From assembly GCA_902792295.1 (NCBI GenBank), contig CADAZC010000001.1, positions 290-64,289 on the forward strand: a DNA stretch of 64,000 nucleotides, in the 5' to 3' direction. The position numbers were made by a program, and so were the translations under genes. The number at the start of each line of letters is the position of its first letter. The stretch's first letter is position 1. Source of the DNA: an uncultured Eubacteriales bacterium. GTDB taxonomy: Bacteria; Bacillota; Clostridia; Christensenellales; CAG-138. Shown one piece after another: positions 20,696 to 26,286 of this stretch. The notes beneath the pieces were generated by a model. That model made no database searches and was not told the origin of the DNA. It saw only the letters and a program-made list of their open reading frames with translations.

Positions 20696-20745
20696 CGTTC
20701 TGATTCTTCAGAATTCGACATACCCTTTCCGTGGGAGGAGAGGGT

Positions 20746-21444
20746 ATGTTTTCTTTTTTATGGCTGTTGTTTCAGTCGATCGCGTTTATCGGTGCGATCG
20801 GATCGAACGGTTCGTTTCCGCAGCCGCTTTCGGCGGAAGAGGAGCAAAAATGGGTACGGCGGCTGATTGCGGGCGACGAGGAGGCGCGGGAAAAGCTGAT
20901 CGTGCACAACCTGCGGCTTTGCGCGCACATTGCAAAGAAGTATCAGAAGGCGGAACGCGACCGCGAGGATTTGATCTCGATCGGCACGATCGGGCTTATA
21001 AAAGCGGTTTCGACCTTTTCGGAATCGAAGGGAACGCTGTCCGCCTACGCGGCACGGTGCATCGAAAACGAGATTCTGATGAGCTTGCGGCGTGAACGGA
21101 AGCTCGTCGAGACCGTGTCGATCGAGGAACCGGTCGGCGCGGATAAGGAGGGAAACGAGCTTCGGCTTGCGGACCTCGTCTGCACCGAGGAGGACACGAT
21201 CTTCGAACAGGTGCAGGGACGGCTCGACGCGGCGATCATCACGGAAACGATGCGAAAGGTGCTGACGAAACGCGAACGCGTCGTGCTGACGCTCCGTTTC
21301 GGGCTTTCCGGCGATGCGCCGATGCCGCAGCGCGAGGTCGCGAACGTGCTGGATATCTCGAGAAGCTACGTTTCCCGCATCGAAAAGAAGGCGGTGGAGA
21401 AGATGCGCGCGGCGTTGGAGGTCAAGGACCGGGCGGAAACATAA
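20746..21444 (+). CDS. sigK: RNA polymerase sporulation sigma factor SigK (pro-sigma-K), uninterrupted
   Basis: Pro-sequence then GSFPQPLSAEEE..., HNLRLCAHIAKKY, DLISIGTIGLIKAVSTF, ARCIENEILMSLR. The FPQPLS motif matches SigK rather than SigE. ATG at 20746 lies 7 nt after GGAGG. Confidence 0.85.
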   Translation: MFSFLWLLFQSIAFIGAIGSNGSFPQPLSAEEEQKWVRRLIAGDEEAREKLIVHNLRLCAHIAKKYQKAERDREDLISIGTIGLIKAVSTFSESKGTLSAYAARCIENEILMSLRRERKLVETVSIEEPVGADKEGNELRLADLVCTEEDTIFEQVQGRLDAAIITETMRKVLTKRERVVLTLRFGLSGDAPMPQREVANVLDISRSYVSRIEKKAVEKMRAALEVKDRAET

Positions 21445-22576: not shown

Positions 22577-22592
22577 TCCGAATGAAACGAGA

Positions 22593-22623
22593 GGGAAACG
22601 AAGAAATCGTTTCCCTTTTTGCA
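22593..22623 (+). terminator. intrinsic terminator after prs
   Basis: GGGAAACG / CGTTTCCC stem followed by TTTTTG. Confidence 0.75.
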
Positions 22624-22679
22624 ACCTTTTTTCGTTCCGTGCGGTATTATTGGCGTAGAACACAAAGGGAGAAGCGAGT

Positions 22680-22958
22680 ATGAAACAGCAAAAGCTTTCC
22701 GGCTACGCGCCGAAATATCCGAAAAAAGTCGCAGCGCTCGCCGCAGCGGCGCTGGTTGCGCTCGGCGCCGCGACGGGATGCCGCTATATTGAGCCGCAGA
22801 TCATGGGCGACATTGCGATCGAGGAGCCGACGCCCGACGAGGATGTGCAGCTTGAGGGCTACATGATGCCGGAAGAAACGCCGGTCGAGGAGCCGACGCC
22901 GGATCCGGAGGAGGTTATGCTTTCGGGCGACGTTATGATCATTGATGATATGCCGTAA
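22680..22958 (+). CDS. small acidic lipoprotein-like protein, paralog 1 (candidate rSAM substrate)
   Basis: 92 aa. RBS AAGGGAG. Basic N-terminus with YAPKYPKKV, a hydrophobic stretch ending ATGC, and an Asp/Glu/Pro/Thr-rich tail with repeated h-x-G-x-hhh motifs. Confidence 0.65.
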   Translation: MKQQKLSGYAPKYPKKVAALAAAALVALGAATGCRYIEPQIMGDIAIEEPTPDEDVQLEGYMMPEETPVEEPTPDPEEVMLSGDVMIIDDMP

Positions 22959-22969
22959 GGAGAAACGAA

Positions 22970-23260
22970 ATGAAACGGGATCAGGTCAAAGAATACCGTC
23001 CGAACTATCCGAAAAAAGTGTTGTGCGGCGCGATCCTCACGACTGCGGCCGCAGTGGCGCTGATGGGCACGACCGGCTGCGAACTGCTTCGCACGGGCGG
23101 CATGCCGGAACCGGTGCCGACCGATGAGCTTGTTCTGGACGGCGAAGTGGCATATGACGACACCGAGCTGCTCCCCGAGGGCGAGCCGGACGGATCGGGT
23201 GAAGGAGAGCCCGCGCTGATGGGCAAGATCGTCGTGCCGGAAGACACGCCGGAACCGTAA
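22970..23260 (+). CDS. small acidic lipoprotein-like protein, paralog 2 (candidate rSAM substrate)
   Basis: 96 aa. RBS AAGGAG. YRPNYPKKV, a hydrophobic stretch ending TTGC, and an acidic Pro-rich tail. Shares the 14-mer TATCCGAAAAAAGT with paralog 1. Confidence 0.65.
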   Translation: MKRDQVKEYRPNYPKKVLCGAILTTAAAVALMGTTGCELLRTGGMPEPVPTDELVLDGEVAYDDTELLPEGEPDGSGEGEPALMGKIVVPEDTPEP

Positions 23261-23269
23261 GGAGCGATT

Positions 23270-24349
23270 ATGAACTTTACTTTACATCTGACGGCAGACT
23301 GTAATTTGGCCTGCCGTTATTGTTACGAAACACACGGAAAACAGCACATGACGGAGGAGACGGCGAAAAAAGCCGTCGATCTTGCGTTCTCGTTCGGACA
23401 CGAAAAGAACGGGTTTTCGCTGTTCGGCGGCGAGCCGCTTCTGGAGCGCCCTTTGGTCGAAACGATCTGCCGGTATGCGGCGCAGAAGGCAGAGGAGACG
23501 GGAACGGAGCTCCGGTTCAAGATGACGACGAACGGAACGCTTCTGGACGAGCCGTTTCTGCGGTTTGCAAACGAACATAAGCTCGATATCGCGCTGTCAC
23601 ACGACGGGCTTTTGCAGGACGTACAGCGCGTCACGCGCGACGGAAGCCCGACCGCGGCGCGGCTGGAGCCGATCGTCGATCTGCTGCTCCGATATCAGCC
23701 GAACGCGGTCGCGATGCAGACGGTGATGCCGTCGACGGTCGACCGGATGGCGGAGTCGGTCGAATGGCTGTATCGGCGCGGGTTTTCACGGATCAACACG
23801 GCGATCGACTATCGCAGGGACGCCGGATGGGACGACGCCTCAATGGCGGTTTTGAAGACGCAGTACGAGCGGATCTCCGATCTGTGCGACAAACACTTCG
23901 ACGACGCGCGCCCTTTGCAGTATCTGAACTTCTGGTCCAAGATCGCGGCGTACCTGAACGACCGTCCGTGCCTGGAATGCAAGCTCGGCATGCGGCAGCC
24001 CTCGGTTGCGCCGGACGGGGCGATCTATCCGTGCAACCAGTTTCTGGACGATCCCGATTACCGCATGGGCGACGTAAGAAACGGGATCGACAAAGAAAAG
24101 CAGCGATCGATCTATCTCGCTTCGCTGGCCCCCGAACCGGACTGTGAGGGCTGCGCGATCGCCGATCGCTGCCGTCACCACTGCGCCTGTCTGAACTATT
24201 CGCTGACCGGCAGGATGCACGAGGTCGCGCCGGTGCAGTGCGAGCACGAGCGGATTTTGATTCCGATCGCGGACGGACTTGCGGAGCGGCTGTATGCGCG
24301 CAGCAGCGCACGGTTTCTTTTGAACTACCGCGACGATCCGCTGGATTGA
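23270..24349 (+). CDS. radical SAM enzyme with full SPASM domain
   Basis: CNLACRYC at residues 11-18 (CX3CX2C). C-terminal CKLGMRQPSVAPDGAIYPC (C-X12-G-X4-C) and CEGCAIADRCRHHC (C-X2-C-X5-C-X3-C). 359 aa with no N-terminal RRE-sized extension. Confidence 0.85.
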   Translation: MNFTLHLTADCNLACRYCYETHGKQHMTEETAKKAVDLAFSFGHEKNGFSLFGGEPLLERPLVETICRYAAQKAEETGTELRFKMTTNGTLLDEPFLRFANEHKLDIALSHDGLLQDVQRVTRDGSPTAARLEPIVDLLLRYQPNAVAMQTVMPSTVDRMAESVEWLYRRGFSRINTAIDYRRDAGWDDASMAVLKTQYERISDLCDKHFDDARPLQYLNFWSKIAAYLNDRPCLECKLGMRQPSVAPDGAIYPCNQFLDDPDYRMGDVRNGIDKEKQRSIYLASLAPEPDCEGCAIADRCRHHCACLNYSLTGRMHEVAPVQCEHERILIPIADGLAERLYARSSARFLLNYRDDPLD

Positions 24350-24360
24350 ACGGCTTTCCC

Positions 24361-24388
24361 GCGCCGGATGCGTTCCGGCGCTTTTTTT
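24361..24388 (+). terminator. intrinsic terminator after the rSAM gene
   Basis: GCGCCGGA / TCCGGCGC stem followed by TTTTTTT. Confidence 0.8.
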
Positions 24389-24508
24389 CTGTCGAAAAAA
24401 GCACTTGACAGAGAAAGTTTCTTATGATATTGTAATTTTTTCATTTGACAGGACGCCGTTTTTTCCGTTATAATATATTTGTTGATAAGACGGGAAGGAG
24501 GGAGTCCG

Positions 24509-25107: not shown

Positions 25108-26286
25108 ATGGCAGGTACGATTTCAAGAGGCATCAAAGCGCCGATCATCCGCCAGGGCGACGACATCGTAAAAATCGTTGCGGATTCGGTTCTGACCGCG
25201 GCGAAGGAAGACGGCTTTACGCTGCATGACCGCGACGTGATCGCGGTGACGGAAGCAGTCGTCGCGCGTGCGGACGGCAATTACTGCACGGTGGACGACA
25301 TCTCCGCGGACGTACGCGAAAAGCTCGGCGACACGCTGGGCGTCGTGTTCCCGATCATGAGCCGCAACCGCTTCGCGATCTGCCTTCGCGGCATCGCGCG
25401 CGGCGCAAAGAAGGTCATCGTTCAGCTGTCCTATCCGGCGGACGAGGAGGGCAACCACCTGATCGACGAGGACGCGCTTTTCGACGCGGGTGTAAACCCC
25501 TATTCGGACGTATTCACGGAAGCGGAATTCGTCGAAAAGTTCGGCGATCCGTGCCATCCGTTCACGGGCGTGAACTACCTTTCGTATTACCGGTCGCTGA
25601 TCGAGGAGGAGGGCGCGGAAGCGGTGATCCTGCTTGCAAACGATCCGACGGCGATCCTGAGCCATACCGACAGCGTGCTGTGCTGCAACATCCACGAGCG
25701 CGAACGTACCGCGCGCAGGGTGAAGAAAGCCGGCGCAAAGCGCGTTCTGACCCTGTGCGACATCATGAACGTCTCCCGGAACGGCAGCGGCTATCAGCCG
25801 GATTACGGTCTTCTGGGTTCGAACAAGGCGACGGAAAACCTTGTCAAGCTGTTCCCGAAAAACGCGCGTGAGGTTGCGGAAGCGATTCAGAAGGAAGTCA
25901 TCGCACGTACCGGCGTGCACGTCGAAGCGATGGTCTACGGCGACGGCGCGTTCAAGGATCCGGTGGGCAAGATCTGGGAGCTTGCCGATCCGGTGGTTTC
26001 TCCGGGCTATACCGACGGGCTCATCGGGCTTCCGAACGAGCTGAAGCTCAAGTATCTTGCGGACAACGAATTCAAAGCGCTTTCGGGCGAGGAACTGACC
26101 GCTGCGATCCGCGCGCGCATCCGCGAAAAGGAAAAGAATCTGAAGGGACAGATGGATTCCCAGGGCACGACGCCGCGTCGGCTGACCGACCTTATCGGCT
26201 CGCTGTGCGATCTGACGAGCGGCAGCGGCGATAAGGGAACCCCGATCGTGCTGGTGCAGAATTACTTTAACAACTACGCAGACTGA
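25108..26286 (+). CDS. F420-0:gamma-glutamyl ligase (CofE)-like domain protein, long form
   Basis: ISRGIKAPIIRQGDDIVKIV...DRDVIAVTEAVVARADGNY resembles the F420_ligase fold. 392 aa from the ATG at 25108 (RBS AAAGGAGAA). Promoter TTGACA-17-TATTAT at about 25043. Confidence 0.5.
   Translation: MAGTISRGIKAPIIRQGDDIVKIVADSVLTAAKEDGFTLHDRDVIAVTEAVVARADGNYCTVDDISADVREKLGDTLGVVFPIMSRNRFAICLRGIARGAKKVIVQLSYPADEEGNHLIDEDALFDAGVNPYSDVFTEAEFVEKFGDPCHPFTGVNYLSYYRSLIEEEGAEAVILLANDPTAILSHTDSVLCCNIHERERTARRVKKAGAKRVLTLCDIMNVSRNGSGYQPDYGLLGSNKATENLVKLFPKNAREVAEAIQKEVIARTGVHVEAMVYGDGAFKDPVGKIWELADPVVSPGYTDGLIGLPNELKLKYLADNEFKALSGEELTAAIRARIREKEKNLKGQMDSQGTTPRRLTDLIGSLCDLTSGSGDKGTPIVLVQNYFNNYAD

Follow-up and report, generated by a model that had tools for sequence, protein, structure and literature searches.

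A radical SAM/SPASM enzyme encoded directly downstream of two lipoprotein-like peptides

Organization of the cassette

The window analysed here is a stretch of 64,000 nucleotides from an uncultured Eubacteriales bacterium (contig CADAZC010000001.1), within which three co-directional genes on the + strand encode products of 92 aa (P1), 96 aa (P2) and 359 aa. The genes are separated by gaps of 11 and 9 nt, and each ATG is preceded at a distance of 8-9 nt by a ribosome-binding site. The features of the cassette are as follows.

22589..22632 (+), intrinsic terminator after prs (13-bp stem, loop AAGAA, T-runs), which separates the cassette from prs
22665..22671 (+), ribosome-binding site of P1 (AAGGGAG)
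22680..22958 (+), P1, a 92-aa lipoprotein-like precursor, the upstream-type paralogue, whose C-terminus is ...L-x-G-D-V-x-I-I-D-D-M-P; orthologues are present in about 25 loci
22680..22730 (+), N-terminal module of P1, MKQQKLSGYAPKYPKKV, a candidate enzyme-recognition element
22731..22781 (+), hydrophobic stretch of P1 plus lipobox A-T-G-C (Cys34)
22791..22829 (+), P1 tail repeat 1, EPQIMGDIAIEEP (position weight matrix (PWM) score 26)
22842..22880 (+), P1 tail repeat 2, DVQLEGYMMPEET (PWM score 17)
22911..22949 (+), P1 tail repeat 3, EVMLSGDVMIIDD, at the C-terminus (PWM score 21)
22957..22962 (+), ribosome-binding site of P2 (AAGGAG)
22970..23260 (+), P2, a 96-aa lipoprotein-like precursor, the downstream-type paralogue (...G-C-[DE]-x-x-R-T-G-G-x-P-E-P ... 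E-P-A-L-M-G-K-I-V-V-P-E)
22970..23020 (+), N-terminal module of P2, MKRDQVKEYRPNYPKKV
23021..23080 (+), hydrophobic stretch of P2 plus lipobox T-T-G-C (Cys37)
23126..23164 (+), P2 tail repeat, ELVLDGEVAYDDT (PWM score 27)
23207..23245 (+), P2 tail repeat, EPALMGKIVVPED, near the C-terminus (PWM score 23)
23259..23264 (+), ribosome-binding site of the enzyme gene (AAGGAG)
23270..24349 (+), RRE-less radical SAM/SPASM enzyme, 359 aa
23300..23323 (+), CX3CX2C radical SAM cluster motif (residues 11-18)
23969..24241 (+), SPASM region with nine invariant Cys (234, 237, 255, 292, 295, 301, 305, 307, 324), including the clade-specific C305-x-C307
24361..24388 (+), intrinsic terminator of the cassette

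The downstream terminator (24361-24381 plus its T-run) was detected in a terminator scan and folds at -17.5 kcal/mol, whereas the upstream hairpin (22589-22620) was not listed by the scan but folds at -17.8 kcal/mol (z = -4.8). No sigma-70-like promoter was detected upstream of P1 by a promoter scan. P1 and P2 are paralogues, with 34% identity by BLASTP (E = 8e-11), and their genes share the 14-mer TATCCGAAAAAAGT, which occurs exactly twice, at 22716 and 23006. This identity, which had been pointed out in the earlier note, does not reflect a DNA-level element: given the same peptide YPKKV and the codon usage of the window it is expected with P = 0.15, and across the family the KK codons split AAA:AAG 48:40. 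In every checkable detail, including gene structure and enzyme motifs, the description in the earlier note is confirmed.

The enzyme and its relatives

The 359-aa protein belongs to the radical SAM/SPASM superfamily. In addition to CX3CX2C at residues 11-18, it carries C-X12-G-X4-C at 237-255, C-X2-C-X5-C-X3-C at 292-305 and C324, and it matches the Pfam Radical_SAM domain (PF04055) with 60.7 bits against a cut-off of 29.5. While the Pfam SPASM score of 17.2 lies below its cut-off of 21.5, the AF2 model (pLDDT 91) matches CteB with a TM of 0.83 across the catalytic and SPASM domains only, and anSME with a TM of about 0.8, the full-length fold match to both including the SPASM domain. The protein starts 10 residues before CX3CX2C and its alignment to CteB starts at CteB residue 100, such that there is no N-terminal RRE domain. 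This contrasts with PapB, which has an RRE at residues 1-86 (PMC12715619).

By sequence the enzyme is closest to the thioether-forming maturases, but scores below every curated NCBIfam cut-off. The best hit is the PapB family of ranthipeptide maturases (NF047865; E = 1e-56), with 192.1 bits against a cut-off of 340, followed by the nif11-type family (155 bits), the SCIFF maturase (TIGR03974; 141.6 bits against 425), QhpD (TIGR03906; 128.6 bits against 453) and the CXXX-repeat maturase (123 bits). Ten wider-clade relatives score 187-229 bits against the PapB family. As in these systems, the proposed precursor genes sit directly upstream, and a short motif is repeated in a proposed substrate rich in Asp and Glu, which would imply repeated action. 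However, most of the tails have no Cys and none has a C-X3-D motif, the precursor carries a lipoprotein-type signal sequence, and SCIFF peptides were found only next to relatives at 24-28% identity. The SPASM region also has an extra conserved Cys (C-x-C) that SCIFF maturases lack. We infer that this residue could fill the Aux I site that is open in CteB (PMC6231123). The immediate neighbours that could be identified are MltG, SigK and prs, with no NCBIfam family for the carD-like, CofE-like or SGNH-like ORFs.

Other SPASM systems resemble the enzyme in more limited ways. Anaerobic sulfatase-maturating enzyme (anSME/AtsB) is likewise a single-polypeptide, RRE-less enzyme of about 360-370 aa, and appears to modify an unfolded secretory protein in the cytoplasm before export. 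Nevertheless, sequence similarity is weak (TIGR03942; 75.6 bits against 349), there is no C/S-x-P/A-x-R motif in P1 or P2, no sulfatase-like motif and no second CX3CX2C protein in the 64-kb window, and the target here would be a repeated G-x-Φ-x-Φ motif rather than a single catalytic Cys or Ser. The cyclopropylglycine synthases TvgB and TigE act on a conserved Val or Ile next to Gly in a short motif repeated several times in one precursor (TVGG, TIGSVS; PMC10878394). The G-Y-W motif that defines that family, and supplies a Tyr ligand to Aux I, is absent here, the fold match to TigE is only moderate (TM 0.66) and sequence similarity is weak (E = 8e-6). The epipeptide epimerase EpeE/YydG acts on Val and Ile residues, uses an enzyme Cys as hydrogen donor and gives no mass change, and represents a candidate chemistry for Cys-free tails with conserved Val/Ile. 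The resemblance is, however, only at the level of possible chemistry, since the fold match is poor (TM 0.46) and there was no sequence hit at E < 0.001.

Conservation of the pairing and of the peptides

The pairing of enzyme and peptides is conserved. In 43 of 43 species-level genomes with upstream DNA, all from uncultured rumen and gut Clostridia (Christensenellales-like), 1-3 peptides with the Y-x-P-x-Y-P-K-K module end -4 to +55 nt from the enzyme start, with a median gap of 9 nt and some 4-nt overlaps. The small ORFs are conserved as intact reading frames with conserved motifs, and are also called as genes in public assemblies. By contrast, the surrounding genes differ: the pair sits in at least three different neighbourhoods (prs/carD, MFS/esterase and recA/rny), with no conserved protease or transporter. 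Because the genomes found are all from one broad lineage, some synteny could be inherited, and the small ORFs might be ordinary unmodified lipoproteins that happen to lie upstream of an orphan radical SAM gene. We consider this very unlikely, since the coupling is tight, the pair moves as a unit between unrelated neighbourhoods, and the pairing persists down to 31-43% enzyme identity with very different lipoprotein bodies but the same N-terminal module.

A functional link without an enzyme-substrate relationship is harder to dismiss, but also appears unlikely. In this view the enzyme acts on a small molecule or another protein, and the lipoproteins bind or present the product, or anchor the enzyme to the membrane through an N-terminal module that serves as a docking site. 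Some SPASM/Twitch enzymes do act on non-peptide substrates (BtrN, DesII, AhbD), the DesII and BlsE structures appear among the weaker fold matches, and no protease or exporter accompanies the cassette. On the other hand, every close characterised relative modifies peptides or proteins, tandem precursor paralogues followed by the enzyme with 4-11-nt gaps are typical of RiPP-style organization (ribosomally synthesised, post-translationally modified peptides), and no other gene is conserved nearby that could supply a different substrate pathway.

The peptides share an N-terminal module, in which P11, Y13 and P14 (P1 numbering) are invariant in 58 of 58 family members, followed by a hydrophobic stretch with a lipobox and a strongly acidic tail (net charge -9 to -33). 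The lipobox pattern {DERK}(6)-[LIVMFWSTAG](2)-[LIVMFYSTAGCQ]-[AGS]-C, after a basic N-terminal region, is matched by 54 of 58 peptides, including P1 and P2, although the Cys lies at position 34 in P1 and 37 in P2, with a family mode of 37 that is beyond the usual limit of 35, because the N-terminal region is extended. The tails contain 1-5 copies of the motif E-[LP]-x-[LT]-x-G-[EDK]-[VI]-A-[VI]-[DEP]-[EPD]-P, with 167 copies in 58 family tails compared with a mean of 0.35 in composition-preserving shuffles. As the PWM was trained on the same tails, the independent test is provided by distant peptides, where 4 hits were observed against 0.07 expected. We note that two paralogues, in the loci L016 and L018, have lost the hydrophobic stretch, the lipobox and all Cys, but retain the N-terminal module and the tail motif, which is the leader-plus-core pattern expected if those two elements are what the enzyme needs.

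The Cys content of the peptides bears on whether the system forms thioethers. The tails of P1 and P2 have no Cys, with P2 having one extra Cys at residue 19 inside the hydrophobic stretch, and 39 of 54 family tails have none. The earlier note excluded thioether chemistry on this basis, but the exclusion rests only on the absence of Cys in the tails: the nearest enzyme families all make Cys thioethers, 15 of 54 tails do contain a Cys, and the larger cousin lipoproteins described below carry a near-invariant Cys inside G-C-V-x-V-x-P-P, at the matching motif position. It is therefore conceivable, although we think it unlikely, that the hydrophobic stretch is part of a leader rather than a signal peptide, and that the single conserved Cys is linked to a β- or γ-carbon of one of the many Asp/Glu residues of the tail, as by PapB, which links Cys to Asp or Glu (PMC9413430), and QhpD. 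Indeed, a Cys is present in 56 of 58 peptides. However, this Cys sits in a canonical lipobox context after an uncharged hydrophobic stretch (54 of 58), there is no conserved spacing from it to an acidic residue, one Cys cannot explain 1-5 repeated motifs, the L016 and L018 paralogues keep the motifs without any Cys, and some cousin lipoproteins lack the lipobox Cys.

Relatives of the enzyme at 36-43% identity sit behind larger lipoproteins that carry the same N-terminal module. The cassette is therefore one branch of a wide family of lipoprotein genes paired with an RRE-less radical SAM/SPASM gene, a family that is absent from Pfam, from NCBIfam and from the papers that we could search on radical SAM/SPASM systems with lipoprotein or signal-peptide precursors and on the comparator enzymes PapB, ChlB and CteB. 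Pfam and NCBIfam searches of P1, P2 and eight partner proteins gave nothing significant, the best being the strep_RK_lipo signal domain at E = 0.007, below its cut-off. A profile search of the peptide family in a set of 5.8 billion proteins gave 279 hits, all unnamed and without Pfam domains, and a Foldseek search of the predicted 280-aa cousin lipoprotein against the PDB gave no match at E < 0.1. In the larger cousin lipoproteins the strict tail PWM is mostly not found, and only a looser G-x-Φ-x-Φ-x-P-P resemblance exists, judged by eye.

The N-terminal module is the only element shared by all partner proteins across the wide family, namely acidic repeats, Thr-rich repeats and the 280-aa folded lipoproteins. 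Its retention in relatives whose exported parts are quite different supports the proposal of the earlier note that it is a recognition element, but would also be compatible with the module being itself the substrate, for example through a three-residue Tyr-Pro-Lys cyclophane as in triceptides, with the modified signal peptide or cytoplasmic tail of a membrane-anchored protein as the functional product and the tail repeats serving an unrelated extracellular role. The module would stay on the cytoplasmic side, where a radical SAM enzyme works, Y-P-K fits the aromatic-X-X pattern of triceptide cores, and triceptide enzymes such as ChlB lack a classical RRE and are similar in fold (TM 0.76). We nevertheless regard this as improbable, because the residue after Y-P is not conserved across the wide family (K, R, Q, D, E, A, T, L, M) and the enzyme is much closer by sequence to the PapB and SCIFF families than to cyclophane formers (47-52 bits). 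Moreover, strong conservation of a short repeated motif in otherwise fast-evolving disordered tails needs an explanation, and the enzyme is the only conserved partner.

A possible maturation pathway

Taken with moderate confidence, the evidence is best explained by a minimal maturation system in the style of RiPP biosynthesis, which supports the interpretation of the earlier note that the peptides resemble multi-core RiPP precursors or a modified exported lipoprotein. In this model, P1 and P2 comprise a cytoplasm-facing N-terminal module (M-K-x-x-K-Φ-x-x-Y-x-P-x-Y-P-K-K), a lipoprotein-type signal sequence ending in a lipobox Cys, and an acidic, Pro/Thr-rich, probably disordered tail with 2-3 copies of Φ-x-Φ-x-G-[E/D/K]-[V/I]-A-[V/I]-[D/E/P]-[E/P]-P. 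We propose that the enzyme binds the N-terminal module directly and, before Sec export, uses a 5'-deoxyadenosyl radical to abstract a hydrogen in each tail repeat and install the same modification repeatedly. The precursor would then be exported, lipidated on the lipobox Cys and cleaved by signal peptidase II, leaving a modified acidic peptide tethered to the outer face of the membrane. No modification has been observed, and the assignment of the peptides as substrates, of the tail repeat as the modified site, of modification before export, and of lipidation is inferred. The closest characterised enzymes all need a substrate Cys, which most tails lack, and the reaction therefore has no direct precedent. 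Because most tails lack Cys and the clade has an extra conserved Cys in the SPASM region (C-x-C), we favour a reaction that does not use a substrate Cys, such as Cα epimerisation or a C-H functionalisation/cross-link at the conserved Gly, Val/Ile or Asp/Glu positions.

More tentatively, the cassette may be the founding example of a new class of radical-SAM-matured, membrane-tethered surface peptides and proteins in gut Clostridia. Here, an RRE-less SPASM enzyme with a clade-specific C-x2-C-x5-C-x3-C-x-C signature would recognise a P-x-Y-P module placed in front of a lipoprotein signal sequence, and install a previously undescribed modification (for example epimerisation, or a new C-C or C-O link) at each Φ-x-G-x-Φ-x-Φ repeat. 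The same logic would extend to the about 280-aa lipoproteins, which have a confidently predicted domain. Nearly all known radical SAM/SPASM maturases are found through an RRE domain, a Cys-rich or aromatic core and a dedicated exporter or protease, none of which is present in this cassette. If confirmed, the system would add a substrate class and probably a reaction to the SPASM repertoire, and show that radical SAM modification can decorate cell-surface lipoproteins of abundant rumen and human-gut Clostridia. The P-x-Y-P module and the C-x-C signature would also provide a handle for mining an uncharacterised enzyme clade, which lies within the 1,500 representative clusters scoring at or below 1e-30 (a count that also includes known SPASM families) and of which ten sampled members all fall below every NCBIfam cut-off.

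Individual elements of the proposed pathway do have precedents. The ChlB radical SAM domain binds a leader without a classical RRE (cited in PMC12912966). Likewise, the precursors of bufferins carry Sec-type signal peptides in place of classical leaders, are modified in the cytoplasm and are then exported by the general pathway, which is described as highly unusual for bacterial RiPPs (PMC12452194). The bufferin enzymes are of an entirely different class (a multinuclear non-haem iron oxidase, MNIO, plus a DUF2063/RRE partner) and bufferin cores are Cys-based, whereas the tails described here are mostly Cys-free, but about 16% of Buf2 bufferins are predicted to have lipoprotein-type signal peptides.

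Genomic organization of the cassette

The three ORFs are exactly as described in the earlier note, lying in the same orientation and separated by gaps of 11 and 9 nt, with each ATG being preceded by AAGGGAG or AAGGAG:
22680-22958 (+), P1, 92 aa
22970-23260 (+), P2, 96 aa
23270-24349 (+), radical SAM/SPASM enzyme, 359 aa

P1 and P2 are paralogues, sharing 34% identity (E = 8e-11). The terminator following the enzyme gene was found by the terminator scan and folds at -17.5 kcal/mol, whereas the hairpin following prs was not listed by the scan, but nevertheless folds at -17.8 kcal/mol (z = -4.8). The 14-mer that the earlier note reported to be shared by P1 and P2 does occur twice, but is not a DNA-level feature: given the same five amino acids and the local codon usage, identity has P = 0.15, and across the family the two Lys codons are AAA 48 times and AAG 40 times. 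No sulfatase-like motif and no second CX3CX2C protein are present in the window.

The cassette is flanked upstream by MltG, a SigK-type sporulation sigma factor and prs, and downstream by a carD-like gene with its own strong promoters. The SigK-type gene (20731-21444) lies two genes upstream and scores 283 bits against the subfamily cut-off of 252, so that the organism is probably a spore former. Since no sigma-70-like promoter was found in front of P1, the cassette could have a non-sigma-70 promoter. By contrast, two overlapping near-consensus sigma-70-like promoters (24405-24474; 10 of 12 and 12 of 12 matches) lie just after the terminator of the cassette and drive the carD-like gene, confirming that carD is a separate transcription unit. 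In addition, we note a 391-aa ORF (25111-26286) that has only a weak N-terminal resemblance to coenzyme F420-0:L-glutamate ligase (CofE), at 46 bits against a cut-off of 274.

An RRE-less radical SAM/SPASM enzyme

The enzyme contains a Pfam Radical_SAM domain, with CX3CX2C located at residues 11-18 and the SPASM motifs at residues 237-255 and 292-305. The best NCBIfam hits are the PapB-family ranthipeptide maturase (192 bits against a cut-off of 340), followed by the nif11-type (155 against 519), SCIFF maturase (142 against 425), QhpD (129 against 453) and CXXX-repeat maturase (123 against 350) families, whereas anSME scores only 76 against 349. Thus, the enzyme sits nearest to the thioether-forming peptide maturases, but belongs to none of the curated families. 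The closest solved structure by sequence is CteB (E = 8e-37), where the alignment begins at CteB residue 100, after the RRE. Unlike PapB, which has an RRE at residues 1-86 (PMC12715619), this enzyme has none. An AF2 model (pLDDT 91) matches CteB with a TM of 0.83, anSME with about 0.8, the ChlB radical SAM domain with 0.76, TigE with 0.66 and EpeE with 0.46. The GYW motif that defines cyclopropylglycine synthases (PMC10878394) is absent.

All nine Cys of the SPASM region are invariant in the family. Residues 292-307 (window 24143-24190) carry the signature C-x2-C-x5-C-x3-C-x-C, which has one Cys more than in SCIFF maturases (C-S-G-G-C-x-x-N) and within the clade often reads R-C-R-H-H-C-A-C-L-N. 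The signature is present in 29 of 30 clade members extracted, down to about 26% identity, with the exception of the member from one locus (L096), which gave no match. While CteB has an open site on Aux I, the clusters of anSME, SuiB and PqqE are fully ligated (PMC6231123), and we infer that the extra Cys may close this site, such that Aux I may be fully ligated in this clade.

Conservation of the pairing and features of the peptides

A scan of one genome per species identified 46 loci (designated here by L numbers) with the enzyme at 58-95% identity, all of which are MAGs of uncultured Clostridia or Christensenellales and nearly all of which come from rumen or other gut samples. Two of these loci, L004 and L044, are both from MAG Tb.RUG.388 (contigs JAEESS010000019 and JAEESS010000034) and each carries an enzyme 86% identical to that of the window, reflecting either two loci in one genome or two strains binned together. 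In all 43 loci that include upstream DNA, one to three small ORFs with the N-terminal module end between -4 and +55 nt from the enzyme start, with a median of 9 nt. The surrounding genes differ, being sigK-prs / carD in the window and its close relatives, MFS / esterase in another lineage and recA / DUF4956-VTC-rny in a third, and no protease or transporter travels with the pair. We regard chance synteny as very unlikely.

The 58 distinct peptides share the N-terminal module M-K-Q-x-K-[LVI]-x-x-Y-x-P-x-Y-P-[KR]-K, within which P, Y and P are invariant. In 54 of 58, the module is followed by an uncharged hydrophobic stretch ending in a PROSITE-type lipobox, the Cys of which is typically at position 37, later than usual because the N-terminal region is long. 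The tails carry a net charge of -9 to -33 and contain 1-5 copies (usually 3) of E-[LP]-x-[LT]-x-G-[EDK]-[VI]-A-[VI]-[DEP]-[EPD]-P, with 167 copies being observed against 0.35 in shuffled tails. Within this motif the Gly is invariant and positions -2, +2 and +4 are hydrophobic, with +2 and +4 being mostly β-branched, and one copy always lies at the extreme C-terminus. Where two peptides are present, they form two orthologous types, matching P1 and P2. A profile search of 5.8 billion proteins found 279 relatives, all unnamed and without Pfam domains, and Pfam and NCBIfam have no family for them.

A thioether formed from the Cys at the lipobox position would be an alternative that we consider unlikely. 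Of the 54 tails, 39 have no Cys, and two loci carry a third peptide gene, located between the two lipoprotein-like ones, that keeps the N-terminal module and the tail motif but has no hydrophobic stretch, no lipobox and no Cys:
L016:3429-3689, third peptide gene
L018:2570-2818, third peptide gene

The third peptide is conserved between two species, which suggests a soluble substrate variant. Together with the extra Cys of the enzyme, the absence of Cys from most tails and the Cys-free paralogues argue against a thioether. We note, however, that in the more distant members (58-64% enzyme identity; L030, L031, L033, L035, L036, L037, L039, L040 and L043) the tail often holds one Cys in a P-[IA]-C-[TE]-[TE]-[EP] context, and that in L020, L022 and L028 a Cys replaces the acidic residue at motif position +5 (E-V-A-I-C-E-P), which may be a relic of, or a variant with, thioether chemistry.

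A wider family and a proposed mode of maturation

A profile search of 1.84 billion representatives revealed many RRE-less relatives of 350-390 aa, and the ten sampled members again score best, but below cut-off, against PapB. In metagenome loci, relatives at 36-43% identity to the window enzyme are also preceded by lipoprotein-like genes with a P-x-Y-P N-terminal module. In L072 (impala gut) these encode short acidic peptides, whereas in three human-gut contigs the tail is Thr/Pro-rich instead of acidic, but still carries repeats of the same shape, such as L-A-G-D-I-I-I-P-Q-E-T-T-T and M-F-E-G-A-L-T-T-P-Q:
L078:1939-2487
L081:1969-2487
L084:1927-2487

Most often, the enzyme gene is preceded by one to four tandem lipoproteins of about 280 aa:
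L055:1638-2498
L057:810-1706
L056:324-1166
L067:76-987
L128:7028-10532
L129:7133-8879

These lipoproteins comprise M-x-I-K-P-V-x5-P-x-Y-P, then P-x-R-W, a membrane segment that usually has a lipobox, A-P-L-F-x-H-G-x-G-x-G-x-x-G-C-V-x-V-x-P-P-x-F-L-S-E-x-E-A, and a C-terminal domain of about 170 aa. The domain is predicted confidently (block-mean pLDDT 73-98 over residues 100-292, mostly above 90), yet has no PDB fold match and no Pfam or NCBIfam family, and its 234 homologues are all unnamed ('hypothetical'). One locus links the two partner types within one cassette, since both a short repeat-type peptide of 112 aa (L070:360-698; with V-T-M-G-D-M-V-Q-M and I-T-M-G-V-P-P-M-P) and a 287-aa domain-type lipoprotein (L070:712-1575) lie upstream of the same enzyme gene. 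At 24-28% identity to the window enzyme the upstream gene becomes a SCIFF peptide, which serves as a positive control for the method. The strict tail PWM recurs in the independent L072 and L081 peptides (4 hits against 0.07 expected), but not in the 280-aa lipoproteins, where only a looser G-x-Φ-x-Φ-x-P-P resemblance is visible.

The only elements common to all partners are the N-terminal module and adjacency to the enzyme, while in the branch that includes the window the repeated tail motif is conserved as well. The simplest reading, which we hold with moderate confidence, follows RiPP logic adapted to a secreted lipoprotein, such that the module in front of the signal sequence serves as the recognition element for an enzyme that has no RRE, and the repeats serve as multiple cores. 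Modification would take place in the cytoplasm before Sec export, as appears to be the case for anSME and, among RiPPs, is known for bufferins (PMC12452194), and lipidation would then tether the product to the cell surface. Although the chemistry cannot be deduced, epimerisation or a new C-H functionalisation at the Gly, Val/Ile or Asp/Glu positions are the candidates. Modification of the N-terminal module itself appears improbable, as does a functional linkage of the proteins without an enzyme-substrate relation.

Radical SAM/SPASM maturases with adjacent precursor genes are already known, but on this reading the system differs in substrate class, mode of recognition, export route and probably the reaction, and none of it is in Pfam or NCBIfam, or in the papers that we could search. 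With respect to the export route, a distant partner protein (L101:603-1007) combines an R-P-E-Y-P N-terminal module with a twin-arginine-like R-R-S-F-L-R-K-L-G segment and a lipobox, which hints that some family members use Tat rather than Sec export.
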